A stretch of 64,000 nucleotides of DNA, from the sequence record LC788706.1; one strand, given 5' to 3'. Shown one piece after another: positions 33,642 through 62,375 of the stretch (within the stretch, counting starts at the first letter, position 1; every line of letters begins with the position of its first letter). The stretch is from Escherichia coli phage KS_S14. The translations under genes were made by a program, and so were the position numbers. The notes beneath the pieces are model-generated. The model did not search any database. It was not told where the DNA came from and worked only from the letters and a program-made list of their open reading frames with translations.

Positions 33642-33938
33642 TTATCGGCCTACTGGAGAAGCACGATCTAACTCTGATTGGAGGCTAGTCACACGACGGA
33701 CTTTCTCGACAGGAATAAAACGGAAGCTATCATTAGTACGAGAGAAGACAAGGATCTCATCATCTTTCGCTTTACGAATACGTTCACGTTTAATACGCTC
33801 AGCCAGATATTTATCTTGGGCTGGATCAAATTCCATCGTACCCTGAAGGTACGTGGTTCCTTTCTGACGAAGTTTCTCGTAATGAAGATAAAACTCACCA
33901 AATTTTTCACATTGTGCGATAATTTCAGCTTTGGTCAT
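33642..33938 (-). CDS. hypothetical protein
   Basis: 98-aa ORF followed by hairpin terminator. Confidence 0.4.
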   Translation of the reverse strand: MTKAEIIAQCEKFGEFYLHYEKLRQKGTTYLQGTMEFDPAQDKYLAERIKRERIRKAKDDEILVFSRTNDSFRFIPVEKVRRVTSLQSELDRASPVGR

Positions 33939-33974
33939 AACTGTGTTCCTTTTGTTGGTGGATTTATCTAAAAA

Positions 33975-34385
33975 TTACTTAGTGATAGCTCGGATTGCTT
34001 CTGCCAGATGAGCAGCCGCTTTACCAGTCAGTTTGTCGATAATTGCATCATCCAGAAAATCTGGTGCTAAGCCAGCATCAGAGAATGCTGAACGAAGATC
34101 GGCATGAGCTTGGGCTTTGGAAGTACGAGAACCACCAGAAGCTTTTTCTCCAGTAGATGCGCTAGATTTAGAAGCAGAGCCAGCAGCTTTCTTGATATAC
34201 ACACCTGCTTTAGTTAGCTTCATACGAAAACCGTTCGGAGTTACACCATTTTCCTGGGCAATTTCGCTAACAATTTCCATGCTAACACCCGGACGTTCAT
34301 CCTCTGGGAATTGCTCCATACGAGCAACGTATTCGGAAGACATTTTTTCGAACAGTTCATCAGTCCACTGAGTTGGAGTAGTCAT
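33975..34385 (-). CDS. hypothetical protein
   Basis: 136-aa ORF with T5-type promoter upstream. Confidence 0.4.
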   Translation of the reverse strand: MTTPTQWTDELFEKMSSEYVARMEQFPEDERPGVSMEIVSEIAQENGVTPNGFRMKLTKAGVYIKKAAGSASKSSASTGEKASGGSRTSKAQAHADLRSAFSDAGLAPDFLDDAIIDKLTGKAAAHLAEAIRAITK

Positions 34386-34434
34386 ATTTTATATTTCCTT
34401 AATTAATAATTAAACAGAATAGTTCTTTCAAACT

Positions 34435-34480
34435 ATGAGAATATTATATCAAGAATTATAGGATTAAGCAACTGAAATTT
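34435..34480 (-). promoter_or_regulatory. T5-type promoter (minus strand)
   Basis: attata 34443-48, aagcaa 34466-71, 17-bp spacer. Confidence 0.55.
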
Positions 34481-34491
34481 TTCTGTAATTG

Positions 34492-34779
34492 CTACACATC
34501 TAGCTCAACGATCTCCCAATCATCCGCCAGAGCTTCTTCTAGGGTTAGGGAGGAGGTTTTCCATGTTGCGTCTTTTATATCGAACTTGGTATACCCATCT
34601 TCATTGGGCCACCAGGTAAACTCGACAATATCATTATTATCAACATCTACTTTTATAATGGTAGAGTAATAAGTACGAGCGTCCCAATTACCCCAGCTAT
34701 CCCGCTGGAGATATTTTACATCTCCATCTTTAAGCAAATCTGTTAGCTTACTCACGGCGTTTTCCTTTTTCTTTATCAA
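34492..34779 (-). CDS. hypothetical protein
   Basis: 95-aa ORF. Confidence 0.4.
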   Translation of the reverse strand: MIKKKENAVSKLTDLLKDGDVKYLQRDSWGNWDARTYYSTIIKVDVDNNDIVEFTWWPNEDGYTKFDIKDATWKTSSLTLEEALADDWEIVELDV

Positions 34780-35452
34780 GCTTCAGGGCGGCCTTAACAG
34801 CTTCGTTAATCAACGTAATAATTTCTTCACGAGTCCACTTGTACCCTAGAGATTTTACGTCAACCCCTAACTTTTCTAGATGCTTAACAGAGGCCAACTC
34901 GTAATTCATATAATGGACGTTCTGTTGTTTGCCTTCCGATAGAAGCCATACACGGTAACAACCAACAGGATTATCCATTGCTTTTTTGATTTCACCGATA
35001 CACTGGTATCCAGGAACCCAAACAAGCTCACCAACTGCAAATTCTTCTGCTACAGCATCATCAGGAATAATTGGAGGATTCAATGGATCTACAATATCGT
35101 TCAAACGAAGTAGAGCACCATATCGTTCCAGAACAGATTTAACCATTGCTACAGAGCGGTAATTACGATCGGCAATTTCTTCAAAAGAATCACCAGATAA
35201 ATACTGCTCAATAACGTTAGCTAACTCAATGCCTTCAATGAGTGTGCCACGTTTCTTTTTCTTCATTTCGGCAACTTGAATCTGGCGGTCTTGCCATTCT
35301 TCAATCATTCTTTCCATAGTTGGATTAGATGATACGCCGAGCATTTCACATGCTGCTTTCTTAGTACCACCGTTCTCCAGATGCTCTATAACCTTTTTAA
35401 AGACTTCATCCGGGATTTCATGGATATGTTTCTTTCTACGAGAACCAGCCAT
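34748..35452 (-). CDS. putative HTH DNA-binding protein
   Basis: 234 aa; HTH-like segment GGTKKAACEMLGVSSNPTMERMIEEW. Confidence 0.45.
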   Translation of the reverse strand: MAGSRRKKHIHEIPDEVFKKVIEHLENGGTKKAACEMLGVSSNPTMERMIEEWQDRQIQVAEMKKKKRGTLIEGIELANVIEQYLSGDSFEEIADRNYRSVAMVKSVLERYGALLRLNDIVDPLNPPIIPDDAVAEEFAVGELVWVPGYQCIGEIKKAMDNPVGCYRVWLLSEGKQQNVHYMNYELASVKHLEKLGVDVKSLGYKWTREEIITLINEAVKAALKLDKEKGKRRE

Positions 35453-35474
35453 ATTTAAACTCCTCTCTCAAATT

Positions 35475-35520
35475 TATGAATCTATTATACAGAAATTTTT
35501 TGCACTATGCAAATAAATTT
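35475..35520 (-). promoter_or_regulatory. T5-type promoter (minus strand) upstream of HTH protein gene
   Basis: attata 35482-87, atgcaa 35505-10 (= TTGCAT), 17-bp spacer. Confidence 0.55.
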
Positions 35521-35763
35521 TTACGATTCCTTGAGCAAAGAAGCAAGTTCAGCATAGACTTTATCTAATTCAAAGCCGATGCGAAGAGACACGTTTGTTT
35601 TCCGTTGTTTAAGTAACCACTCGGATATGTTAGGGATGCCAGCTAATCTATGCGGTACCACCCTACATAGCTTTTCCGAAGTGTCGTAAACAGGAACTTT
35701 ACGTTCTTTTACTGGAAACTTCCTTGTTTCCCATTTTTTATTCTTCACTGTCATTTCTAGCAC
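35521..35763 (-). CDS. hypothetical protein
   Basis: 80-aa basic ORF. Confidence 0.4.
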   Translation of the reverse strand: MLEMTVKNKKWETRKFPVKERKVPVYDTSEKLCRVVPHRLAGIPNISEWLLKQRKTNVSLRIGFELDKVYAELASLLKES

Positions 35764-38605
35764 CTAGCTCTGCCATTGCTTCATCATGCATATGTTTCTC
35801 CTCATCAGTCATAAACTTATACGGGATTGGCATACACTCGATTTTACAATAGGTTCTGTACCAGTCTACAATATTCTCCGTGTTCATATCCTTACCAATA
35901 CCCATCATACCAAGATACATTCTAGCATATTTTGGGTTAGCACTCTGACCTGTTTTAAGGAAGAAATCTTTCTTCTTACCTTTCAGAGCTTCTATAAATG
36001 GTTTGATAGTGACATTTGAACACTTCTTAATATCTTCCCAGAACATCTCGTGCATTTTATGGAAAAATGCCGCTCGATCATTCGGTTTATCCTTAATATA
36101 TTGTTCAACATGCTCAACTGTTACATCTTTAATAGACTCAAGATGATAATAGCGAACAAGAAGTAGTTTAGCTTCATACGCATCAGCATGGCGTGGAGCA
36201 CAATAATCAGGGGTTGAATATAAAATAGCTTTGATTCGCTCTTCCGTATATTCCTTCCCAGCACCTTCGATAGTTCCCCAGCTTTCACTGAAAATATCAA
36301 TAGTTGCACCCTGATCAAGCAAGTAATAACGTAAAGTACTAGTATAGTTCCTAGATTCCAGCTCTCTACGACGTGCGTATAATTGCTGTGCTAACTCCAG
36401 CCAACCTTCATCAATGTTATATTGCTCAGAACCTGCGGAGAATCCACTCGTAGATTTATCAATAAAATAATAAATGTTCTGAGCGCCACGGTCGCGCCTG
36501 ATTGCTTGAAAACGCATGTTTGGCGCTTGGTTGCTGGTTCTAGTAATAACGAATACGTTATCAAAATAGTTGAAGTCAACACCACTAGTTACGGAGGGAC
36601 TACATAATAAGCAATCAATTTGTTGATCAATTAGCTCATTAGTTGTGTAATCCAGAATACGTCGAATATCTACATCAGACGTAGAGTTTGAGTGGATTTC
36701 CTTAACTAACGCACCCGTATTACGACGCAGCGCCATACCCTTCTCATTCAGTTCATCCGGGCCACAATCAGATACCAGAATAGATTTCTCCCCCATTTCT
36801 AGAGAAGTCTGAAGTGCAACCCAAATACTGGATTCATCAGGGAACTCATAAGCATGAGCTTTTGACAGCATTTTACGGTGATGATTATAAAATGCAACCG
36901 GTTTATCAAACTCAATTAAAGAACCATATGCTTCAATTGTTTCTGCACTAATATCCCCATCAGATAATATAATAATTTTTGCAGTTGCAAGAATGTCACG
37001 TAGAACTTGAATACATTCGCGACGTTGTTTAACAACCGGGGCGAATAATAGGTCATTCATTACAGCATCACATTCATCGATAAAGATTGCATCAATTTGA
37101 CCAATAAAACTCTTGAACTTATGCAAAGAGTGAATAGTTGTGGACATACGGTCAATAGCACCACGCTTAAAATTAAGCATATCTACAGACTTATCATATT
37201 GTCCTGCACTAAATTTCTTAGCATTTGAAGATACCAGTGCTCGAGTATTGGTAATTGCTAAGAAATTACCTTTAATAACTCCTGAATCTAACCAACGCAC
37301 AACCGCCGTAGTTTTACCTGTACCTAGACTTGCTTTTACAAAAGTCATATAACCTTCTGGTGGTACAGTATTTAATTTCAAGAAGTTATCAGTTTCTAGA
37401 GAATTAGTTTCTAGCTTTTTAAGTGGAATACCTTTTAAAACATCAGGTATATCGCGTTTAGAATTATTAACAAACGCTTTCAGAGCCTGTTTACGGCCGT
37501 TATTAAAGTAATCTTGAATATTACGACTATTATCTTTAGTTGCAATATATTCTGATAAGGCTGGACGGATTTCTTTTTCTAGCCATGCAAAATCAACACC
37601 ATCCTCCAAAGCTCTATGATAGAGTTTAGGTATAATACGTAGATACACCCCATCCTCAGCTTCTTCTAGTTCGCTGATAGTTTCCTCTACTTTATCAGAG
37701 GCAGCTTTTTTACCTTTAATTTGATCGAGTAAAGAGTAAAACTCCTCCTTAAACTCACCTCTAGTTGTTTCATAGTCAACCAGATTATTGGGTAAATTTA
37801 CTTTAGAACCCTTAACAAATACCAGACGTGAAGCACCCTCCGCTTTAAACGGATCTACTATACCATCGGTAAATAACGGATCTGCAAAATAATGGAGCTG
37901 TACGGAAGAGTAATACGCTAAGTCGGCAATATCAAAGCCATACTTTTGTCTACTACTTTCGTTGATAGATGTAAATAAGAATTTGATTTGACCCTGAGTT
38001 ACTTTAACATTAGATTCTAGTATTAAGTGCATTCGGATACCTGGTTTTAGCCCAGACGAAGACGATGCATGAGCGATAAACCCTGCATCAAGAGGAAACA
38101 TATCCTCACTAATACTATTTAACATTCTAATAATATGTCGAGCCATGCCAACAAGATCAAACTTGTTACAACCACCTGTATCTACAATACCATCCACGTC
38201 CATTGCAATTATATGACTTGGGTTAGATACATTAAAGTTGCCCTTCTTACGTCGCACATTATTTTTAGGTGCAAGACATCGACCTCGTACCGCAACGATA
38301 TGAGGGTCAGACGTTAAACGTCTCATAAGAGGGAGCATTTCTACTAGGGTTTGAGGATCAACTTCATCAATTACATCAAACTTGAAGGGCATTGAAGCTG
38401 GTTTACCTTCAGGATGCTTTGAGGAAAATCTTTTAGCAAAAAGATAGTCTTCTGCTTTAACTTCTCGCCAATTGCCTGTGGCTAAATCGCGATGAAATCC
38501 TGCATGACCTTGTAGGATTGAGAACACAACGATACTCCTGTGTTGGAAATGAAATAAGTTTTCTTTAGGACTATTCAGAAAGAATAGAACAACTGTTACT
38601 GTCAA
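35738..38605 (-). CDS. large P-loop ATPase, putative origin-binding / helicase-like replication protein
   Basis: Walker A SLGTGKTT, Walker B-like FIDECD; start uncertain (ORF track start is TTG at 38605; an internal ATG near 38400 is possible). Confidence 0.6.
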   Translation of the reverse strand: MTVTVVLFFLNSPKENLFHFQHRSIVVFSILQGHAGFHRDLATGNWREVKAEDYLFAKRFSSKHPEGKPASMPFKFDVIDEVDPQTLVEMLPLMRRLTSDPHIVAVRGRCLAPKNNVRRKKGNFNVSNPSHIIAMDVDGIVDTGGCNKFDLVGMARHIIRMLNSISEDMFPLDAGFIAHASSSSGLKPGIRMHLILESNVKVTQGQIKFLFTSINESSRQKYGFDIADLAYYSSVQLHYFADPLFTDGIVDPFKAEGASRLVFVKGSKVNLPNNLVDYETTRGEFKEEFYSLLDQIKGKKAASDKVEETISELEEAEDGVYLRIIPKLYHRALEDGVDFAWLEKEIRPALSEYIATKDNSRNIQDYFNNGRKQALKAFVNNSKRDIPDVLKGIPLKKLETNSLETDNFLKLNTVPPEGYMTFVKASLGTGKTTAVVRWLDSGVIKGNFLAITNTRALVSSNAKKFSAGQYDKSVDMLNFKRGAIDRMSTTIHSLHKFKSFIGQIDAIFIDECDAVMNDLLFAPVVKQRRECIQVLRDILATAKIIILSDGDISAETIEAYGSLIEFDKPVAFYNHHRKMLSKAHAYEFPDESSIWVALQTSLEMGEKSILVSDCGPDELNEKGMALRRNTGALVKEIHSNSTSDVDIRRILDYTTNELIDQQIDCLLCSPSVTSGVDFNYFDNVFVITRTSNQAPNMRFQAIRRDRGAQNIYYFIDKSTSGFSAGSEQYNIDEGWLELAQQLYARRRELESRNYTSTLRYYLLDQGATIDIFSESWGTIEGAGKEYTEERIKAILYSTPDYCAPRHADAYEAKLLLVRYYHLESIKDVTVEHVEQYIKDKPNDRAAFFHKMHEMFWEDIKKCSNVTIKPFIEALKGKKKDFFLKTGQSANPKYARMYLGMMGIGKDMNTENIVDWYRTYCKIECMPIPYKFMTDEEKHMHDEAMAELGARNDSEE

Positions 38606-39019
38606 TTTCTCAACAAATTAATTGCAAATACTGAAGTGGGGTGGCAACTTCCACTTTCACGCTACACTGCCGCTTCACTATACCGCACAAATCCTTGAGG
38701 ATGGCCGCTAAGCCAGATTTGCTCACCTAATGCTTCATGTACTAGCTCATACTAGATGTAGTATACCTTACGTCATCACTTCTCAGAGTTTTTCACTCTT
38801 CCCGTCTCACTTCACAACCACCTCACACTAGGTTGCTTCGAGGCCTTACCAGGGTTCCTACGGGATGTAGATCGCTAAGTATTCTATTAATTATTTGTTT
38901 AAAAACTAACACGTAACAGTTAAAACAACCCTTAATGGGGCAGCCTAACTGTTCCGTATCGCGGATTGTAAACAAGAAAAATTAGCAAAATCAATTTTTA
39001 CTAATGTCTCTCAATTCAA

Positions 39020-39065
39020 TATAAATATTATATCAAGATTTTGGGCATCCTGCAAGTAAAATTTT
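39020..39065 (-). promoter_or_regulatory. T5-type promoter (minus strand) ~400 nt upstream of large ATPase gene
   Basis: attata 39027-32, ctgcaa 39050-55 (= TTGCAG), 17-bp spacer. Confidence 0.55.
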
Positions 39066-39131
39066 CCGGATGGTGCTATCATTGGTCTTGAGTACGGATA
39101 AAACCGAGCCAAAATGACTCGGTTATGTGGA

Positions 39132-39329
39132 TTAGACACTTAAAATACTTCTAATCTCTTCTATATACTTATCTACTTTTTTAGCATCTACTTTACTTAG
39201 TTTTCCTATGTCAAAATCAGGATCAGTAAACATTCTAGCTATCTCTATCTCTAGAGACTTACTAATTTTCCCTGTAGTATTCCACTTAGAAATCTTCCCT
39301 TTTATTTTCCAAAATTCCTTATTCATCAT
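39132..39329 (-). CDS. hypothetical protein
   Basis: 65-aa ORF, last gene of coupled operon. Confidence 0.35.
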   Translation of the reverse strand: MMNKEFWKIKGKISKWNTTGKISKSLEIEIARMFTDPDFDIGKLSKVDAKKVDKYIEEIRSILSV

Positions 39330-39711
39330 TTAATCCCGGAACATATACCCCAACACGATTTAATTGTTCTTTAGCTTCTTTGAGAATATCTGGAGTGTAC
39401 TCCCAAATATCATCTTCCACCTGTAAAAGATGGGGCGAACAACTATCATCAGGCACACGACATATGGCCAAACCACGTGGATGGAACAAAGAGAAGTTTA
39501 GGGCAACAATCAAGCCCATAGCAGACAACTCATTCCAATCCAGTTCCCATTCCCCGGCGTATCCAGACAGGAAAACGCCAATGCATGGATCATCTATTTG
39601 CTGCTCAGGAAAAGTGAAGGAGGCTTGTCTTACCCCCAACCAACGTTGTAGCAGCTTCTCCGCACGTTTCACCAAACTAGGGTCAATCTGACGCCAATAT
39701 ACTTGTTCCAT
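39319..39711 (-). CDS. hypothetical protein, paralogue of adjacent 142-aa ORF
   Basis: Shares PCIG, MGL..ALN..LF.P and C-terminal PGL motifs with 39721-40149 product. Confidence 0.5.
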   Translation of the reverse strand: MEQVYWRQIDPSLVKRAEKLLQRWLGVRQASFTFPEQQIDDPCIGVFLSGYAGEWELDWNELSAMGLIVALNFSLFHPRGLAICRVPDDSCSPHLLQVEDDIWEYTPDILKEAKEQLNRVGVYVPGLNDE

Positions 39712-39720
39712 TGTGCCCCC

Positions 39721-40149
39721 TTAGGCGGTTAAACCCGGAATTTGATAACCAAAACGACGAAGTTTTTGGATACCATCATTTACTTCTTCTGGTGAGTAAG
39801 ACCAACCATACCGTTCATTAACTTGAAAACCAGGAGATTCGTTGGTTTTATAGTTAACAACAATACGGTGTTTATTAGGCATAAACAGCCTATAGTTTAA
39901 CGCAAAAACCAAGCCCATTTCATCCAACTCTTTCCAGCCAACAATCTCTTCAAGACCCTCCTCTACCTGCACAATTAAACCAATACAGGGAGCTTCTTCA
40001 ATCTCGCCTTTAAAAGCAAAGGAGATTTCATTATTCTCACACCATATTTTCAGAGCATTAATAGCCTCATTGTACAGGTTGGCTGGAAGAGTACGCCAAA
40101 AATTAACCAATATCGGGTTAGCCTCTTTAGAGAATACATTATTGAACAT
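39721..40149 (-). CDS. hypothetical protein, paralogue of adjacent 130-aa ORF
   Basis: See paralogue; tandem duplication. Confidence 0.5.
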   Translation of the reverse strand: MFNNVFSKEANPILVNFWRTLPANLYNEAINALKIWCENNEISFAFKGEIEEAPCIGLIVQVEEGLEEIVGWKELDEMGLVFALNYRLFMPNKHRIVVNYKTNESPGFQVNERYGWSYSPEEVNDGIQKLRRFGYQIPGLTA

Positions 40150-40151
40150 AT

Positions 40152-40658
40152 TTACACCTTAAATTGTTGTAGGGCTTTACACATTTCAAGATCTGGGCTA
40201 AATTCTAACATATAGCTAACAGCTCTTAAATCTTGAAGATTTATTCCAGTTCTACCATTGACTATAACCGTTGGATACTGATACATCATAGCACCAGCAT
40301 CATCCAGCACACACCAATGTTTGAGCCTATGCTTTTCAACGAAGCGAAGAACAGAATTACCCCTAGATAATCCACCACCAGTAAAATCCGTTGTACCAAG
40401 AAAACGATCAATAAGATCTAATCCGGTCATAATCTGAACGTTCTCCATCTCATTCCTGACAGAGAACCATGAAGATACTCCAACAATCATTATTGGGGAA
40501 GGACGAATAAAGTCCTGAAAAGCCTTGAGAAGCGGTTTAAAAACCCAGTCACTTCCAAAGAAAATCTTTTCATCATCAGGTGCATGGTGATGGGAGATGC
40601 TCGAGTTGAGCACCCCATCAATATCTAGAAAAATAATTGGAGTATTACTTATTTCCAT
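40152..40658 (-). CDS. HAD-superfamily phosphatase-like protein
   Basis: N-terminal IIFLDIDGVLN (DxDG motif I) and later VLDDAG. Confidence 0.5.
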   Translation of the reverse strand: MEISNTPIIFLDIDGVLNSSISHHHAPDDEKIFFGSDWVFKPLLKAFQDFIRPSPIMIVGVSSWFSVRNEMENVQIMTGLDLIDRFLGTTDFTGGGLSRGNSVLRFVEKHRLKHWCVLDDAGAMMYQYPTVIVNGRTGINLQDLRAVSYMLEFSPDLEMCKALQQFKV

Positions 40659-40827
40659 TTTTGTCCCTTTCTAAGAACGTATCATACTCAACCGTATCAA
40701 CATATATGACACCATAGTCATCGGATTTATAGTCCATTTCCCATAGCTCACACCGATAGCACCAACTACCATCCGCCCATACAAATATATCATCTGGATG
40801 TGTATACACAGATTTAACTATGGACAT
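40645..40827 (-). CDS. hypothetical small protein
   Basis: 60-aa ORF overlapping both neighbours. Confidence 0.3.
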   Translation of the reverse strand: MSIVKSVYTHPDDIFVWADGSWCYRCELWEMDYKSDDYGVIYVDTVEYDTFLERDKNGNK

Positions 40828-41642
40828 ATTTGTTTTCCCGGCATATAAGGTCTACCCTCTAAATGGGCTTCCACACGAGCAATAAAACCAGGGTCACTGA
40901 AAGCATCTACCGCACCTTTACTCCAGTAAGAAATACCCCGATCTTCCAGTTGGTACATATCACTACGAGTCATGCCTTGATAGCCTGGTTCTGCCGCTAG
41001 GGCACTATCGTAGTAGTTAACCACCATAAGTTTCGCAGCAGTCAAATTAAGAATAGGAAATAATTCCCAGTAGAAGTTAATTACTTGGTTAGAGCAACCA
41101 ACTACAACGATCATATCTTGACTGGTAATACCATCAAAAATATTGTACATTTCTGCGTACGCTGGAGCATGCTCACCAAAGAAGATTACATTAGGTTTAA
41201 CCCATTTATAATCATCTGGGTCAATAGAGCTATACCCAACATCAATAACTCGTTTATTGCTACTATTGTAGCTGTCAGCTACAACAACCTCTTTTAAATA
41301 CCCATGAATATGCAAAATGTCACTATGCGGAACACCAGCACGCTCAATAAGGTCATCAACGTTAGTAGTCAAATTTACTACTTGACCCGGATATTTCTTA
41401 TACCATTCACCAATACGCAAGTGTGCAAGATTGGGTTCAACAGTTTTTAGCTCTTCACGTCGCTTGTTGTAAAACATATGGGTTTTATGATAAAAATTAC
41501 CACGAAAGGCATGAATATTACATACCTCTTCTAAGTCATACTCATCCCACAATGCTTTACCACTGGCAGTATCAGTACGGAAGGCTCGTACACCACTTTC
41601 GACACTCAAACCCGCACCGCTAATAATAATTAATCTACGCAT
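40818..41642 (-). CDS. Sir2-family (sirtuin-fold) NAD-binding protein lacking the zinc ribbon
   Basis: ISGAGLSVESGVRAFR (GAGIS.ESGI..FR motif), TTNVDDLIERAG, HIHGYL catalytic-His motif; no CxxC...CxxC pair. Confidence 0.7.
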   Translation of the reverse strand: MRRLIIISGAGLSVESGVRAFRTDTASGKALWDEYDLEEVCNIHAFRGNFYHKTHMFYNKRREELKTVEPNLAHLRIGEWYKKYPGQVVNLTTNVDDLIERAGVPHSDILHIHGYLKEVVVADSYNSSNKRVIDVGYSSIDPDDYKWVKPNVIFFGEHAPAYAEMYNIFDGITSQDMIVVVGCSNQVINFYWELFPILNLTAAKLMVVNYYDSALAAEPGYQGMTRSDMYQLEDRGISYWSKGAVDAFSDPGFIARVEAHLEGRPYMPGKQICP

Positions 41643-41856
41643 TTTTCACCTGTTCTCTGAAGTTTTGCCCAATACTGTCTAATAGCTCAGCTAATTCTTT
41701 ATTGCCTTCCTCCATTAAGGTATTAGCAATAACTTCTAGCATAGTAGCGCAGGATTCAACACCATCCTTATAGCCAGTTTCCCAGTGCTGCATTAATGCG
41801 TTTTCCAAAGCGGCGTTTAAACCCTTATCTGGTAGCATCGGCTTCGAGAATGCCAT
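41635..41856 (-). CDS. hypothetical protein
   Basis: 73-aa ORF. Confidence 0.35.
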   Translation of the reverse strand: MAFSKPMLPDKGLNAALENALMQHWETGYKDGVESCATMLEVIANTLMEEGNKELAELLDSIGQNFREQVKNA

Positions 41857-42028
41857 AAAGTTTCTCCTCTAGTTCCATAACACGATTTTCATAAGAGGCA
41901 CGCAACTTTTCAATTGCCAGCGCACGCACTGTAACCTCATTAGAATTAATAGCTAACTGGGCCAGATCTTCTGTTTCCATACGTCCGTTGTAAATTAAGC
42001 GATATTTAAGATGTTTTACGTTTTTCAT
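41825..42028 (-). CDS. hypothetical protein
   Basis: 67-aa ORF. Confidence 0.35.
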   Translation of the reverse strand: MKNVKHLKYRLIYNGRMETEDLAQLAINSNEVTVRALAIEKLRASYENRVMELEEKLYGILEADATR

Positions 42029-56287: not shown

Positions 56288-56605
56288 ATGACTTTTCATA
56301 TTTTGATTGATGATGTGCGTAATCTTCACGGAATGGACATTATCATTCGAACCCCAGAAGCCGCTGTAGAGTTTCTGAATAAAACTGATACTACAGGCCA
56401 TTTCGTTTATATGGATAATGACTTGGCTGTAGATGGTATGGAAGGTTATCAAATTCTTCGTTTACTCTTAGAATTTGGGCAGAGACCAAAGAAAGTGGTA
56501 CTAGTAACCTCGAACCCAGTAGCTAAGCAAAATATGCGTAATGATTTGCTTGACTTAGGGTATAAAGAAAATCCCAATCGTGTTGAGTATGATTGGCAGG
56601 AGTAA
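56288..56605 (+). CDS. hypothetical protein
   Basis: 105-aa ORF after T5-type promoter. Confidence 0.4.
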   Translation: MTFHILIDDVRNLHGMDIIIRTPEAAVEFLNKTDTTGHFVYMDNDLAVDGMEGYQILRLLLEFGQRPKKVVLVTSNPVAKQNMRNDLLDLGYKENPNRVEYDWQE

Positions 56606-56610
56606 AAAGA

Positions 56611-57060
56611 ATGAAGGCAGCTTTGCTTTTAGTAGCTGCCCTTACCTTCAGCTTTAGTAGTCAGGCATCGCACGATGCAAAAGAAATAGATTGCATTGCT
56701 AAAAATATCTATTTCGAGAGTCGTGGTGAGGGCATAAAGGGAATGACGGCGATTGCACATGTTACTAAAAACCGTGTAAACTCTGGTAAATTCCCAGATT
56801 CCTACTGTAAAGTAGTATATCAGTCTAACCAGTTCTCTTGGGTATCTAAGAGACCAAAAGTTGATAAAACCGATGAGGCTTGGCAAACTGCTAAGAATTT
56901 AGCTAGAGTGATATACTACGTTGATTTACCACAAGATCCTACACATGGAGCACTATACTTCCATAGTGGTAAAGATAAACCTTACTGGACAAAGAAATTT
57001 AAGAAAACAACTAAGATTAAGGGACATACGTTTTATAAACCTGTTGTCACTAAAACTTAA
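56611..57060 (+). CDS. SleB/CwlJ-type cell wall hydrolase with N-terminal signal peptide
   Basis: MKAALLLVAALTFSFSSQA signal-like N-terminus; IYFESRGEG...AIAHVTKNRV...DPTHGALYFH...GHTFY match Hydrolase_2 pattern. Confidence 0.6.
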   Translation: MKAALLLVAALTFSFSSQASHDAKEIDCIAKNIYFESRGEGIKGMTAIAHVTKNRVNSGKFPDSYCKVVYQSNQFSWVSKRPKVDKTDEAWQTAKNLARVIYYVDLPQDPTHGALYFHSGKDKPYWTKKFKKTTKIKGHTFYKPVVTKT

Positions 57061-57785: not shown

Positions 57786-58017
57786 ATAAATTAGAGAACA
57801 GCGAGCCGATTACGCTGAACTTGTCTTAATGTAAGATGCGTCAAGCACTAAGATTCGTTGAATAGAGTCGGTGGGTTAGTTGTAAAACTAGTACACAGGG
57901 GGCGGCAATCCCGGTTAGTGGCTAGAACGTGTAAAATGAGGCGTCTGAAACCTCTCCCCTAAACTCTTCTCTAATTTATAAATAGTGGGGTGTGGAAATC
58001 ACTTATGTAGTAACACT

Positions 58018-58089
58018 GCCGTCCTAGTATAATTGGTATTATCAAGCCGTAACTGGTGGAAGATGTAGGTTCGAATCCTACGGTCGGTA
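58018..58089 (+). tRNA. tRNA-like element, possibly degenerate tRNA
   Basis: Perfect T-arm GTAGG-TTCGAAT-CCTAC and acceptor pairing with one U-U mismatch, but no convincing anticodon stem and no encoded CCA. Confidence 0.3.
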
Positions 58090-58591
58090 AGAACTGGATA
58101 ACTGATGCTTTTAACGTAAAAGCTTCCGAGGTTAGTTGCGCACTGCCTAAACCACGCGGTAGTTGGTTCCAGACTAACCAACCAGTCTGCTGAATAGTTT
58201 TATTACGATTTAACTATGTCCAGGCTAAAGAAGAACTTTAGAAGGTATTCTAGGATAGTGAAGTTCTTTCTCCATATCGGAGTAGTTTTTCAAGCTATCC
58301 ACAAAGTGGGAAATGCTGACATGAGAGATGTCACTAATGGTGCACAATAGCACAGGTAATTCGCGATAACTCCTGTTGAGTAGCAGCAAAAGGCGGGAAG
58401 TCATGACCCCAAGCCTAACCGAGTCCTCAATATACCGCAGGACATAACCACTAAGTCACCCTGACTTAAACTGGAAAATAATAGACGTTACTGTATTTTG
58501 TCTTGAAATACTTAATGAGCGAGACTTATGACTCTCCCGGTATCGTCTGTATTTTTAAGAGCTTTTATAAGAGTTCTTAAAAATGCCTAAA

Positions 58592-58666
58592 CGGGGTGTA
58601 GTCTAAGGGAGAGGCAGGAGTCTTCTAAATTCCTTTATGCAGGTTCGAATCCTGTCACCTCGGCCA
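58592..58666 (+). tRNA. tRNA-Arg (anticodon TCT)
   Basis: Hand fold: acceptor CGGGGTG/CACCTCG, anticodon stem GGAGT/ATTCC, loop CTTCTAA, T-arm GCAGG-TTCGAAT-CCTGT, encoded CCA. Confidence 0.6.
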
Positions 58667-58700: not shown

Positions 58701-59648
58701 ATGTTTAATACTAAAAATATGAAAGAACTGACTTCTGAGCAGAAAGTAATTCGTACTATTAAACGTTGGGGTATTGGTGCTGTAGTTGGTTTAGCAGGCT
58801 TGATTCTAGCTTTTAATTCATATACTATTGTTTCTGATGGTACGGTTAAAACCCAAACATTCCTGGGTAAAGTAGATCCTAATCCAGTATTGCCTGGTTT
58901 CCACCTTGTAAACCCGTTTGCATCTTTCGATACTTTTAGTACAAAAGATATTGCTGTAAAATTATATAAACTTCAGGTTCCTAGCCAGGATAAGTTTAAA
59001 TCCACTGTTGACCTGACTGTTATGTTGCAGTTTGATGGTTCTAAGGCACCGATTAACCGTATTAACGCAGGTACTCAGGATCAGGCACTAGACAAGTATG
59101 TAACTGAAAAATTACTGTCTACTATTCGTGAGTTTGGTAAGTCTGTACCTAAAGCACAAGATTTATTTGATGCTAAAATTCAGGCTCAATTGCAAACTGC
59201 AATTCAACAGGAAGTTGAAGAGTATGCACGCCCATATGGTTACACAGTTAAGCAGGTGTTCCTTCAGGATATTACTTTGCCACCGGTAATCATGGAACAG
59301 GTACAGAATACCAAAGTTCGTGAAGAACAGGTTAATGCTGCGAAAGCTGAACTGGCTCGCGTTGAACAAGAAGCTCAGCAGAAAGTCAAACAAGCAGAAG
59401 CAGACCGTGAAGCTCGCAACAACCAAGCTATTGCCAATGAACGTGATGCAGATGCTAAACTGTACGCAGCTAAGAAAGAAGCTGAAGCTAACGCCGCATT
59501 GCAACGTACCATTACTCCTGAGATGATTCGCTGGAAGCAACTGGAAGTTGAAATGATTCGTGCTCAGAAATACCAAGGTGGTGTACCGCAGACTGTGGTT
59601 GGCACTGGCTACGATGGTCAAATGATTATGGATATGCGTAATAAATAA
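58701..59648 (+). CDS. SPFH / band-7 (prohibitin-like) membrane protein
   Basis: 315 aa; N-terminal TM helix (GIGAVVGLAGLILAF), SPFH-like core, Ala/Glu/Gln-rich coiled-coil. Confidence 0.65.
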   Translation: MFNTKNMKELTSEQKVIRTIKRWGIGAVVGLAGLILAFNSYTIVSDGTVKTQTFLGKVDPNPVLPGFHLVNPFASFDTFSTKDIAVKLYKLQVPSQDKFKSTVDLTVMLQFDGSKAPINRINAGTQDQALDKYVTEKLLSTIREFGKSVPKAQDLFDAKIQAQLQTAIQQEVEEYARPYGYTVKQVFLQDITLPPVIMEQVQNTKVREEQVNAAKAELARVEQEAQQKVKQAEADREARNNQAIANERDADAKLYAAKKEAEANAALQRTITPEMIRWKQLEVEMIRAQKYQGGVPQTVVGTGYDGQMIMDMRNK

Positions 59649-59672: not shown

Positions 59673-59708
59673 AGCCCTGCGTTTCCTGGAGAGCGCAGGG
59701 CTTTTCTG
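59673..59708 (+). terminator. rho-independent terminator after SPFH gene
   Basis: AGCCCTGCG...CGCAGGGCT then TTTTCTG. Confidence 0.7.
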
Positions 59709-59724
59709 TACTTAAGATAAAAGA

Positions 59725-59755
59725 AAAGCCCCTAAGTCTTTCGACTAGGGGCTTT
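59725..59755 (-). terminator. terminator for convergent minus-strand Q-rich gene
   Basis: GCCCCTA(A)GTC...GACTAGGGGC; minus strand followed by TTTTCTTTT. Confidence 0.6.
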
Positions 59756-59972
59756 ATTGTTTGGTTCTTCAGAACCATATACTCTTATTACAGCAACCAC
59801 CCATACGGGAGGCCAATCTTGACTGAAAATCTACTCTAGGGGGCAGGATAAGAGTAGGCTTAAAGGCAAACGGATTGAACGCCGGTATTTGCGTAAACAT
59901 TGCTGGAGAGCAACAACGTGCTACAGGCATTGGGCAGCACGAAACAGATTTTCTGCAACACATAATTCCTCC

Positions 59973-60389
59973 TTAGGAGTTATTACCACTATTTTGAGCT
60001 TTTGCAACCTGGCTTTGGCAGAAGCTATTAAACTTACCCATAAGTGATACAAGCTGTTTACCATCCTCTGTCTTTGCGAAGTCTTCGAAAAGGGCTAGTA
60101 CTGCCTGTCCTTCCGCAGAAACCTGCGGTTGTTGGGTTTGCTGCTGAGCTTGCTGCTGCGGCACCTGTTGCTGCATTTGTTGAGGCATTTGCGACTGCCC
60201 GCTCATTTGCTGCATCATTTGCATAGGACTCACACTTCCAGGGTTTTGCTGGAGTTGTTGCTGCATCTGTTGCGCTTCTGCTAAACGCTGTTGCAATTGT
60301 TGTAAGTAGGGGTTATCCAGACCAGGAATGGGCTGCTGGGAGCCCATACTTTGATTAAGTCCGTTATTTACAAAACCATATTTACTCAT
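59973..60389 (-). CDS. Gln-rich low-complexity protein
   Basis: 138 aa, central Q/M/P-rich tract. Confidence 0.5.
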   Translation of the reverse strand: MSKYGFVNNGLNQSMGSQQPIPGLDNPYLQQLQQRLAEAQQMQQQLQQNPGSVSPMQMMQQMSGQSQMPQQMQQQVPQQQAQQQTQQPQVSAEGQAVLALFEDFAKTEDGKQLVSLMGKFNSFCQSQVAKAQNSGNNS

Positions 60390-60410
60390 AATGGGCTCCT
60401 CCCCTTAATA

Positions 60411-61398
60411 TTAAGCCGGCAGTTTAGCCTGCAGACCAGCCAGAGTCTGAGTGATAGCACCAAGACTTACAGCGATTTGATTAATTACCTGACCGTTAGC
60501 ACCGGTACCCGCAGCGATTGCTTCACGTAGGCGACATGCATCTAACTCATCCTGAATACGCGCAGTAGTTACACCAGCGATCGCAGTCTGAAGTTCACAG
60601 CAACATTCAGCGATCTGACGTTCCAGAGAGTTCTGGTTAGCACACATCTGAGCCTGAACAGCGACAAACTGGTTATTAGTTTGTAAAGTCTGCTGGAAAG
60701 CGATCTGTGCAGAATCAAACTTATCTTGTGCACGAGCTATCTGGTTAGCTGCGAAAGATTGATCGATCTGGCGAGAAAGATCGAACTGACCCTGAATAAC
60801 GTTGCGGGTTTCCTGGCAGATCTGATTAGACAGATTAGCACCTGTACCATAGATCGTAGTTAGTACAGACTGAGTATCACGGCTCTGGTTTTGGGATGTC
60901 TGGCTAAAACCATTGTTAACTGCGCTTAAAACAGCTCCAGTACCCTGGTTAGCTTCTGTACGAGTAGTGTTAATAGCTGCTAGAATACTAGCGGTATCTT
61001 GGTTCTGAAGTACTGCATCAACTGCGGTACCTTCACCAACTACACCACGTCCACCGAATCCACCGAAACCACCGAATCCGCCTGTTAATAGAGCACCGAT
61101 TAGGATAGCTCCGAATAGACCCATACCTTCCCCACCGAAAGCACCTGCGTTTGCTGGATAACCACCCAGTAGGCCAGGGAAGCCACTAGTGAATACGTTT
61201 ACTGGTTCTTGCATTTTATGTTTTCCATATTTATGACAATGCTCATCATCGTCATCTTCTTCATCATCGTGTTCACGATGTTTTTCTTCGTAGGCTCTGA
61301 CCTTCTCCCACTTTTTCTTATCTGATTCCTCGTGACGGTGCAGTTCTGCTGCAACGCTAGCGACGGTCTCAGGACTCTTAGCTACTTCTTCTGTCATT
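60411..61398 (-). CDS. glycine-zipper membrane protein with acidic/His-rich N-terminus and Gln/Asn/Thr-rich C-terminal region
   Basis: Start taken at MTEEVAK with RBS aggagg (ORF-track start 61457); GMGLFGAILIGALLTGGFGGFGGFGG segment. Confidence 0.5.
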
Positions 61399-61469
61399 TT
61401 TTGACACCTCCTAGTATATAGAAAATGTGTGTCTCTTTGATCACTCATCCATAACATATACTTTACACT

Positions 61470-61515
61470 ACCCCAGCGAAAATGTCAAGGGGTCTTTAAA
61501 AATTGCCCCCGGATT
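61470..61515 (-). promoter_or_regulatory. sigma70-like promoter (TTGACA type, minus strand) upstream of Gly-zipper/Q-rich gene pair
   Basis: Minus strand reads CCCTTGACATTTTCGCTGGGGTAGTGTAAAGTAT (TTGACA, 17 bp, TAAAGT). Confidence 0.4.
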
Positions 61516-61594: not shown

Positions 61595-61640
61595 AAAAAT
61601 TTGATTGCTTGAATGCTAAATTCTCTGTATAATATATCTA
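61595..61640 (+). promoter_or_regulatory. T5-type early promoter
   Basis: TTGCTT (61605-10), 17 bp, TATAAT (61628-33). Confidence 0.65.
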
Positions 61641-61663
61641 TAAATTTGAGAGAGGAACCAAAT

Positions 61664-62182
61664 ATGAATGTTGATGAACTAACAGAACATCTCTTATCTA
61701 GAGGGTTTGATACAGATAAATATCACTGCTGGCTAAGCCCAGAAGGATGGCTAACAGTCCCATTGTATGACTTCTCTGGGATGTTGAGAGGCTATCAGAC
61801 TTATAATCCTTCTGCTCCAAAAGGTCATGGTAAACGCCCCTTTGAAGCTAGATATTTTACTTATTCTACTACACAGTGTGTAGGGGGACTAGAAACTCTC
61901 AATGGAGACGAAAAAGTAGTATTGATTGCTGAATCTGTATTTAAGGCAGTTGCGTTACATAACGCTGGTTATCCAGCCCTGGCAATGTTGGGTTCTTCCC
62001 CTGGAAAAGCGTTGTTAAAGCAATTGAAATTACTACCTTTTAAATTGGTAGCTGTTGGGGATAATGATCCTGCTGGTGAAAAATTTGCTAGACAATTAAA
62101 TGGATTTGTTTCTCCTGTAGATGTGGATGAGATGTCTACCGAAAACTTGAAAAATTTTCTTGCTATGAAGCTAAATTTCTAA
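61664..62182 (+). CDS. Toprim-like small protein
   Basis: ATG 61664 with RBS gagagga; IAESVF (Glu) and VGDNDPAG (DxD) Toprim-like. Confidence 0.45.
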   Translation: MNVDELTEHLLSRGFDTDKYHCWLSPEGWLTVPLYDFSGMLRGYQTYNPSAPKGHGKRPFEARYFTYSTTQCVGGLETLNGDEKVVLIAESVFKAVALHNAGYPALAMLGSSPGKALLKQLKLLPFKLVAVGDNDPAGEKFARQLNGFVSPVDVDEMSTENLKNFLAMKLNF

Positions 62183-62297: not shown

Positions 62298-62375
62298 GGT
62301 TCTCAAGCTCATATGGTATGAGCACCCGGCTCATAACCGGAAGGTACGTAGGTTCGAATCCTCGGGGAGCCACCA
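62298..62375 (+). tRNA. tRNA with CAT anticodon (Met or Ile2-type), weak T-stem
   Basis: Acceptor GGTTCTC/GGGAGCC with G-U pairs, D-stem GCTC/GAGC, anticodon loop CTCATAA, TTCGAAT T-loop but only 3 T-stem pairs; encoded CCA. Confidence 0.45.

Follow-up and report, generated by a model that had tools for sequence, protein, structure and literature searches.

What is the role of a short block of minus-strand genes embedded in the plus-strand tRNA region of a T5-like phage? This question is raised by positions 59973-61515 of a 64,000-nucleotide stretch of Escherichia coli phage KS_S14 (record LC788706.1; the whole stretch is referred to here as the window), which a preliminary description based on the sequence alone had portrayed as an independently transcribed, two-gene unit encoding a Gly-zipper membrane protein and a Gln-rich, prion-like protein. 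The analysis presented here indicates that this unit is, with high probability, the orthologue of the T5 operon T5.077-T5.078-T5.079, i.e. a self-contained minus-strand transcription unit that represents a dispensable and horizontally mobile accessory cassette.

Identity and transcription signals of the unit

The window is derived from a T5-like phage (Tequintavirus), with its plus strand corresponding to the early/tRNA strand of T5. The 1.9-kb region under study was found to match 227 phage records, 217 of which cover at least 80% of it, at identities of up to 98.8%, and all matching records represent T5-like phages of Escherichia and Salmonella (Demerecviridae, Tequintavirus/Epseptimavirus). 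The complete unit occupies 1.8 kb of the minus strand (59719-61488) and consists of a promoter, three genes and a hairpin terminator, as listed here:

61488-61460, minus strand: sigma-70-type promoter (equivalent of T5 'P12'), TTGACA-17-TAAAGT
61398-61459, minus strand: discriminator and ~55-nt 5' leader, with Shine-Dalgarno sequence TAGGAGGTG at 61413-61405
61397-60411, minus strand: gene 1 (T5.077/T5p075 orthologue), 328 aa; phrog_8119, E = 1.9e-203
60389-59973, minus strand: gene 2 (T5.078/T5p076 orthologue), 138 aa; phrog_7894, E = 1.4e-79
59963-59769, minus strand: gene 3 (T5.079/T5p077 orthologue), 64 aa, MCCRKSVSCC..., behind AAGGAGG
59755-59719, bidirectional according to T5 (ter1): intrinsic terminator hairpin, stem 59752-59728, T-run 59727-59719

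The proposed orientation among plus-strand genes and both of the proposed open reading frames (ORFs) were found to be real, but the unit contains three genes rather than two, the 64-aa gene 3 having been missed. The T5 records NC_005859 and AY734508 annotate promoter P12 and the coding sequences T5.077 (T5p075), T5.078 (T5p076) and T5.079 (T5p077), all three of which are labelled 'hypothetical protein' with no function given. The same records list an 'efficient bidirectional rho-independent transcription terminator' (ter1), with a major DNA nick adjoining it. Gene order, strand, neighbours, promoter and terminator are alike in T5 and KS_S14, and nothing essential differs between the two; identity to the T5 proteins amounts to 81% for gene 1, the most diverged part, ~95% for gene 2 and 100% for gene 3. 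Synonymous divergence (pS) from T5 was calculated as 0.35, 0.15 and 0.05 for genes 1, 2 and 3, respectively, and this fall along 59769-61397 suggests recombinational exchange of gene 1 alleles or an extra nucleotide-level constraint at the 3' end. A search of the available literature identified no paper naming T5p075-077 or T5.077-079, and no T5 transcriptome covering this unit.

The predicted TTGACA-type promoter was corroborated by comparison across relatives. Its -35 hexamer TTGACA (61488-61483), 17-nt spacer and -10 hexamer TAAAGT (61465-61460) are followed by the discriminator ATATG (61459-61455), and 10 of 12 hexamer positions match the consensus. Across 20 T5-like loci, neither the hexamers nor ATATG change, whereas the spacer bases vary, and the divergent T5-like loci L004 and L009 display TTGACA-17-TA(A/G)AGT ~55 nt before the ATG. 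The promoter is accepted because of this hexamer/spacer conservation and the P12 annotation in T5, and not because of the consensus scan, which returned five promoter-like sites compared with 8.2 +/- 2.8 in shuffled sequences and is, taken alone, no better than chance. In T5, the -10 hexamer of every known early promoter is followed by ATATT, and early activity in vivo has been shown for P15A, the divergent promoter next to the unit (PMC7472727). As ATATG is close to this early ATATT element, the KS_S14 promoter likely belongs to the early class. The leader is almost invariant across T5-like phages, and Rfam revealed no known RNA family in the unit or its leader.

The terminator comprises an A-run, followed by GCCCCTAGTC-GAAA-GACTTAGGGGC and then TTTTCTTTT, with a predicted fold of -20.8 kcal/mol (z = -4.0), and its stem is maintained among T5-like phages via compensatory variants and one inverted inner-stem variant. 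These properties, together with the T5 annotation, bear out the proposal that the unit possesses its own terminator, although the hairpin is located outside the interval 59973-61515 to which the unit had been assigned. Each divergent cassette likewise ends with a hairpin and a T-run. Co-transcription with the neighbouring genes is impossible because these are located on the other strand.

A second hairpin, GCCCTGCG...CGCAGGGC followed by TTTTCTGT (59674-59701, plus strand), ends the plus-strand SPFH gene, and its stem also exhibits compensatory variants among relatives. It holds the sequence A|GCGCA, which aligns base for base with the T5 'major DNA single-chain interruption' (consensus NPu-pGCGC-N). 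KS_S14 thus probably carries the T5 nick at ~32.6% of the genome, inside this terminator stem, with a predicted position between 59692 and 59693.

The view that the ORFs are non-functional filler and that the signals are chance matches, which could draw on the unenriched promoter scan and on the low complexity of all three proteins, is effectively refuted by the comparative data. Genes 1 and 2 are under purifying selection, with ratios of non-synonymous to synonymous divergence (pN/pS) of ~0.19 and ~0.15, respectively (range for both 0.15-0.26), gene 3 having undergone too few changes for a verdict. Furthermore, gene order is kept in at least five unrelated phage backbones, the promoter hexamers are conserved around a variable spacer, the terminator displays compensatory variants, and 161 remote homologues of gene 1 were retrieved.

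The three products and the ECCCE family

Gene 1 starts at 61397 (MTEEV), behind TAGGAGGTG, as in all homologues; an upstream ATG at 61457 was rejected, as it overlaps the promoter discriminator. The deduced protein is composed of a charged N-terminal helix (residues ~12-43), an acidic/His-rich linker, a conserved motif MQEPVNVF, a Gly-rich hydrophobic segment (~92-115) and an alpha-helical, Q/N/S/T/A-rich C-terminal domain of ~200 aa. All elements previously noted for this product were recovered, namely a Gly-rich hydrophobic stretch, a tail rich in Q/N/S/T and the peptide HREHDDEEDDDDEHCHKYGKHK. The hydrophobic segment, with a Kyte-Doolittle value of 1.9 over residues 92-108, holds the loose motif (G/A/S)xxxGxxx(G/S/T) twice (AILIGALLT, 97-105; ALLTGGFGG, 102-110). 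The term 'Gly-zipper' is justified in this loose sense but not by the Pfam Gly-zipper models (Omp, YMGG and OmpA types), none of which matched gene 1 at E <= 0.1, the sole Pfam match being to RIFIN (0.016), below the cut-off. Searches of Pfam, NCBIfam, PADLOC and PDB returned no match for gene 1.

The AlphaFold2 (AF2) model of the gene 1 product mostly consists of one long helix (134-325), predicted at low confidence (predicted local distance difference test score, pLDDT, of 48), a quality insufficient for a fold search. Conservation across all backbones is highest in the last 80 residues, which contain the conserved cysteines C252 and C265-C267 (motif ECCCE), with CCC being invariant in the alignments. 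His-rich runs (up to HHYHHHHHEH) are found in the heads of T5-like gene 1 products, a tract that is not conserved outside T5-like phages. In Salmonella phage SE11 (L017, locus positions 4000-4339), gene 1 stops early in a repetitive GGFGGFGG coding stretch (112 aa), with genes 2 and 3 intact; this truncation may be genuine (a natural knockout) or stem from a sequencing slip within the repeat.

Regarding topology, the N-terminal segment is highly charged, and the C-terminal domain contains ~5% K/R, 8% D/E and 32-39% Q/N/S/T. In two relatives discussed below, L052 and L067, the residues immediately before the membrane segment form basic runs of 10-15 K/R. These basic runs and the charge of the head versus that of the C-terminal domain would favour an N-in/C-out orientation.

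A profile search with gene 1 against 1.84 billion representative proteins yielded 161 matches, and the motif (L/M/I)A(E/D)CCC(E/D)xK is carried by 109 of the 151 family members examined. Judged by these shared features, gene 1 is a member of a wide, unnamed phage family that combines a Gly-rich membrane segment with an ECCCE motif found in nearly all members. Its remote homologues include phrog_16490 and phrog_9288 (gut Firmicutes phages, Edwardsiella phage eiAU and Aeromonas phage phiWae15), which are annotated as being of unknown function. These share with gene 1 the Gly-rich membrane segment, the Q/N/S/T-rich helical domain and the CCC motif; in contrast to gene 1, they have a short, uncharged N-terminus, lack gene 2 and gene 3 partners and have other neighbours. 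Pfam, NCBIfam and PADLOC searches with the remote relatives gave no informative match. In two phages of Gram-positive hosts (L005, 3170-3655; L006, 5670-6125), the ECCCE-family gene is followed by a gene for a 150-160-aa protein, similar between the two phages, with CxCxC motifs; a suspected resemblance of this protein to BclA/C1q-like domains was unsupported by a PDB sequence search.

The gene 2 product is dominated by Q and M, as had been reported (38 Q and 10 M in 138 aa, with 30 Q and 7 M in residues 28-90). A Q/M/P-rich linker (~49-90), which is variable, separates a conserved N-terminal motif and helix (27-48) from a helical hairpin at the C-terminus (92-133; EGQAVLALFEDFAKTEDGKQLVS.MGKFNSFCQS); this hairpin is also conserved and contains a single invariant Cys. 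The AF2 model reached a pLDDT of 80-90 for the hairpin, <50 for the linker and 62 overall; Foldseek with this model returned zero PDB matches, and Pfam, NCBIfam, PADLOC and PDB sequence profiles gave no match for gene 2. A total of 117 homologues were identified, exclusively on cassette contigs or on contigs matching T5-like phages in size. In homologues of 99-143 aa, the tract is shorter and P-rich, and the conserved columns are located in the flanking helix and the C-terminal hairpin. Of the 'prion-like' characterization, the Q-rich composition stands, but the tract is poorly conserved, variable in length and predicted to be disordered, and is thus predicted to behave as a variable disordered linker rather than as a conserved prion-like domain. 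The label 'cAMP-dependent protein kinase' attached to gene 2 in some records was rejected, as Pfam detected no kinase domain. Gene 2 accompanies only those gene 1 forms with a long N-terminal head and is lacking beside the short-headed relatives (eiAU, phiWae15 and the Gram-positive phages); therefore, its product probably docks on that head.

Gene 3 starts after a gap of 9 nt 3' of gene 2 and encodes MCCRKSVSCCPMPVARCCSP...GGCCNKSIWF, a P/F-rich peptide that starts with MCC, contains four CC doublets and an NPF motif, and lacks a hydrophobic segment. The gene is present, at 89-100% identity, in each of the 19 T5-like loci that permitted a scan for it. Furthermore, all seven divergent cassettes contain an ORF directly after gene 2 that starts with MCC, MCGCC or MSCNCGC and encodes additional CC doublets, along with motifs that include CCPxPVxRCC, NPF and, at the C-terminus, GxCC. 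Gene 3 is left unannotated in most genome records, and it must nearly always remain uncalled, since only three gene 3 protein clusters were found among 5.8 billion database proteins. Pfam, NCBIfam and PADLOC returned no match for it.

Accessory status and distribution of the cassette

When presence and absence among related phages were compared, the cassette was observed in 211-227 records, compared with 441 records carrying a DNA polymerase at least 90% identical to that of the window, and is thus missing from about half of the close T5 relatives. In DT57C, the SPFH gene is directly followed by the primase-like gene, which, with these flanks as anchors, represents a clean empty junction, and in misterkot, bombadil and others NadR and PnuC are located at the cassette site. 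As this site can be empty or hold either the cassette or NadR/PnuC, the SPFH/primase-like intergenic site is a cargo hotspot. The interval between the end of the SPFH gene (59648) and the primase-like gene (61661-62182) is also empty in EH7 and PK7, and in misterkot, bombadil and MET_P1_137_112 (loci L061 and L062) it contains genes for a NadR-type nicotinamide-nucleotide adenylyltransferase and a PnuC transporter, and a small ORF.

Record AY734508 corresponds to the stretch of T5 that the st0 mutant has lost (limits 33667-41891), and the unit falls entirely inside it. The unit is dispensable because it lies within the deletion of st0, a viable laboratory strain; dispensability also fits the natural relatives that lack the cassette. 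The GC content of the cassette is 46-47%, compared with 39% for the window, mostly via first and second codon positions (GC1/GC2), i.e. via amino-acid content. At third positions (GC3), values are 0.34-0.45 for the cassette and 0.27-0.36 for neighbouring genes; a strong compositional case for recent transfer was rejected, GC3 being near the phage background.

The same three genes, in the same order and followed by a hairpin and T-run, were identified in five backbones that are not T5-like. Two of these are different lambdoid phages (L010 and L067), in which the cassette is located between the Q antiterminator gene and the holin-lysozyme-Rz genes, on the opposite strand. In an N4-like phage (L011), the cassette is found beside the virion RNA polymerase gene; L012 is a 62-kb phage related to Pseudomonas phage RSP, and L068 represents one further backbone. 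The lambdoid loci L010 and L067 have a common inverted repeat, GGTGCTAATACTTAGCACC, in their intergenic leader. All five non-T5 cassettes, and none of the T5-like ones, carry a divergent ORF of 48-67 aa, Cys-rich and with a basic tail, ~250 bp upstream of gene 1, at the following positions:

L010, 2716-2919 (locus coordinates), minus strand: divergent ORF
L011, 2756-2911 (locus coordinates), minus strand: divergent ORF
L012, 2746-2892 (locus coordinates), minus strand: divergent ORF
L067, 4744-4917 (locus coordinates), minus strand: divergent ORF
L068, 4759-4914 (locus coordinates), minus strand: divergent ORF

The products of these ORFs follow the pattern M.RRYCP.CGTL..C.ECG.WFTK.R.DQ.YC.P.CRQRK.R..KK, for which solely sub-threshold matches to zinc ribbons and to the NinG N-terminus were obtained. 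Being zinc-ribbon-like, the divergent ORF may encode the cassette's own regulator.

That the cassette is a moron-like accessory module with its own promoter and terminator, as the preliminary description had suggested, is well supported by its absence from half of the relatives, the empty DT57C junction, the st0 deletion and its occurrence in unrelated backbones. As in lambdoid morons, the unit possesses its own promoter and terminator, is oriented opposite to its neighbours, varies in presence among relatives and is dispensable, with two copies located exactly in the Q-holin interval. Unlike lambdoid morons, the KS_S14 cassette resides in a virulent phage, to which prophage expression is not applicable, and its composition signal is weak. 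The cassette was not found in 185,579 representative bacterial and archaeal genomes in two scans (with gene 2 patterns and with gene 1 patterns), nor was its lambdoid version found in 5,426 complete E. coli genomes.

The contents of the hotspot and the mobility of the cassette bear on the explanation that it is cargo of a defence arms race, i.e. a phage-borne abortive-infection/defence module with a membrane effector against competitors, or a counter-defence module, which is considered improbable. NadR and PnuC, the alternative content of the hotspot, are encoded by nicotinamide adenine dinucleotide (NAD) salvage genes, and NAD salvage genes serve counter-defence against NAD-depleting defence systems; an autonomous unit with its own putative regulator that moves between unrelated virulent and lambdoid phages would also suit such a role. 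However, neither the three proteins nor their relatives matched any PADLOC model (PADLOC-DB), even with the threshold relaxed to E <= 1, a membrane/periplasmic architecture is unusual among known anti-defence proteins, and Pfam and NCBIfam detected no toxic or enzymatic domain.

Scans of IMG/VR and metagenomes retrieved almost only T5-like phages, in addition to two loci of a Cys-less, two-gene subtype (L059, 4840-7777; L052, 3803-5111). This subtype consists of a gene 1 relative without CCC and a gene 2 relative without Cys, with gene 3 being absent. Such joint absence hints at a cysteine-based cooperation of the three proteins, possibly through a shared thiol/metal site. A further explanation is a thiol/metal module, in which the His/acid-rich head, ECCCE, the gene 2 Cys and the CC-doublet peptide would bind or transfer metal or form a redox/disulfide relay. 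The His-rich runs of T5-like gene 1 heads, the four CC doublets of gene 3, the CCC motif in 109 of 151 family members and the L059 genes are all consistent with this explanation, which is nevertheless highly improbable: the His-rich tract is not conserved outside T5-like phages, the N-in/C-out orientation would place CCC and the gene 2 and gene 3 cysteines in different compartments, the Cys co-loss is a single evolutionary event, and no metal-binding family was matched.

In L059, the subtype immediately precedes, in the same orientation, a complete lysis cassette encoding SLT-like endolysin, holin-like, Rz-like and lipobox-bearing Rz1-like proteins. Together with the position of L010 and L067 between Q and holin-lysozyme-Rz, this arrangement raises the possibility of a lysis-timing accessory, in which a membrane protein, together with its partner in the cytoplasm, would modulate the triggering of the holin or the disruption of the envelope, in the manner of the T4 antiholins RI/RIII or of a spanin-like periplasmic stalk. 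Other family members are also found near lysis genes: that of L005 is located after a CHAP endolysin and a holin, that of Ceridwen after an endolysin, and that of L065 is 750 bp from an M15 peptidase. In addition, the predicted anchor with its long helical domain and conserved Cys resembles i-spanins and RI. Conversely, the cassette is not beside lysis genes in T5-like phages or in the N4-like phage; the lambdoid copies occupy the classic Q-S moron slot, on the opposite strand and with a terminator of their own; lysis proceeds without the cassette in about half of the T5-like phages; and the promoter is likely of the early type. Genes 2 and 3 encode neither a lipobox nor a signal peptide, and therefore no o-spanin. 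A role in lysis timing is thus judged unlikely, albeit less so than one in defence.

A closer comparison with spanins (lambda Rz/Rz1) and T4 RI/RIII leads to a similar picture. Common to these systems and the cassette are a membrane-anchored protein whose long helical domain bears Cys and is predicted to reside in the periplasm, small partners, and relatives that are often near lysis cassettes. The cassette differs from them in its predicted 60-95 aa cytoplasmic head, its lack of a lipoprotein partner, its location outside the lysis cassette in T5, N4-like and RSP-like phages, and its dispensability for lysis. A spanin identity was rejected on the grounds that there is no lipoprotein partner and that the cassette is dispensable.

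The genes surrounding the unit in the window were as follows:

58592-58666, plus strand: tRNA-Arg
58701-59648, plus strand: SPFH/band-7 gene (Band_7, E = 8.8e-17)
61613-62182 as listed ORF, plus strand: Toprim/primase-like gene
From 62203, plus strand: tRNA-Ser, with further tRNAs also on the plus strand

The primase-like gene more likely starts at ATG 61661 (MNVDEL..., 519 nt), which matches the T5 and DT57C annotation, than at the listed ATG 61613. The former is located downstream of a P15A-type early promoter (TATAAT then ATATC) and the leader ATAAATTTGAGAGAGGA. At 56593-57060 (plus strand), 2.7 kb from the cassette, a SleB-type cell-wall hydrolase is encoded (Hydrolase_2 according to the annotation of relatives) with an apparent N-terminal signal peptide, MKAALLLVAALTFSFSSQA, and in the divergent T5-like locus L004 a Hydrolase_2 gene is likewise located ~1.7 kb from the cassette. 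Positions ~57873-58591 (plus strand) are the counterpart of T5 'RNAX', a 719-nt stable RNA just upstream of tRNA-Arg; within this region, Rfam matched a tRNA at 58018-58089 (35.5 bits; gathering score 29), for which ARAGORN made no call. A further tRNA at 62298-62372 (plus strand), directly after tRNA-Ser, was identified by Rfam (40.3 bits) and missed by ARAGORN; it is annotated as tRNA-Ile(CAU) in T5 and DT57C, and as tRNA-Met in other relatives.

Proposed mechanism and significance

The predicted features of the three proteins are moderately in favour of a scheme comprising a bitopic inner-membrane gene 1 product, a cytoplasmic gene 2 adaptor and a cytoplasmic gene 3 peptide. In this scheme, the acidic/His-rich charged head of the gene 1 product would be cytoplasmic, followed by one Gly-rich membrane segment and a periplasmic, low-charge helical stalk of ~200 aa, whose conserved distal 80 residues (C252, ECCCE) would be disulfide-bonded in the periplasm. 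The gene 2 product would act as an adaptor, composed of a helix, a floppy Q/P-rich linker and a helical hairpin, that docks on the gene 1 head, and the gene 3 product would be a small cytoplasmic CC-doublet peptide. The complex would be made early in infection, its promoter resembling the T5 early class, and could act at the envelope, where it would either block or disturb genome entry by competing phages (superinfection exclusion) or protect or modulate the envelope of the infected cell. Such a mechanism, i.e. an early-made envelope complex for superinfection exclusion or for envelope protection/modulation, is proposed tentatively and is more doubtful than the product scheme. The explanation as a whole, combining identity, products and mechanism, is regarded as possible, with somewhat less than an even chance of being correct.

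The superinfection-exclusion proteins T4 Imm and Sp, P22 SieA, HK97 gp15 and the T5 outer-membrane protein Llp are, like the products of the cassette, small, accessory, non-essential, envelope-located and made independently of the structural genes, a likeness that constitutes a functional analogy only. The cassette differs from these proteins in comprising three components, with a predicted helical stalk of 200 aa and clusters of Cys, and searches of Pfam, PHROGs, NCBIfam and PDB revealed no relationship to Imm, Sp, SieA, Llp, Cor or gp15-type proteins at the sequence or profile level.

Several observations weigh against the proposed envelope complex. No homology to a characterised superinfection-exclusion, lysis, defence or anti-defence protein was detected in Pfam, PHROGs, NCBIfam, PADLOC or PDB; homology to a characterised structural or lysis protein, which would have spoken against a moron-like module, was likewise absent from Pfam, PHROGs, NCBIfam and PDB. 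The AF2 models are poor (pLDDT 48 for gene 1 and 62 for gene 2) and Foldseek returned no matches. With regard to topology, T5-like phages have no K/R within 30 residues of the gene 1 membrane segment, and in relatives from clostridial-type phages the C-terminal domain contains numerous Cys, which would usually point to a cytoplasmic location. The N-in/C-out model furthermore leaves the co-loss of cysteines in the Cys-less subtype unexplained. As no copies were found in bacterial genomes, there is no evidence for a prophage-expressed role.

The recurrent themes are a protein anchored in the envelope, small partners in the cytoplasm, an autonomous and mobile unit, an insertion site that can also hold NAD-salvage cargo, and a frequent, non-universal proximity of family members to lysis cassettes. 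It is conceivable, though improbable, that the cassette exemplifies a mobile, new class of envelope system in which a periplasm-reaching 'ECCCE' coiled-coil anchor, a flexible cytoplasmic adaptor and a largely unannotated CC-doublet microprotein would employ cysteine chemistry (disulfide cross-linking or a shared metal/thiol centre) either in the exclusion of rival phages or in the gating of lysis.

The annotation of the unit in T5 was already known; what is new is that the three-gene cassette is shared across phages, that it hides a CC-doublet microprotein and that its gene 1 belongs to a wide family with the ECCCE motif. T5 is a classical model phage, in which this promoter-to-terminator unit has been 'hypothetical' for twenty years. 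With its viable deletion, natural null relatives and size of 1.8 kb, the cassette represents a well-defined and cheap target for the study of phage-phage competition or envelope control, and its main protein belongs to an ECCCE membrane family that has no Pfam entry. Should its function prove to be ordinary, the locus would still document a cargo hotspot of T5-like phages, at which the cassette alternates with NadR/PnuC or with nothing. If the envelope-system class proposed above is real, the ECCCE superfamily, with members in phages of both Gram-negative and Gram-positive hosts, would constitute a major uncharacterised family of phage membrane effectors.

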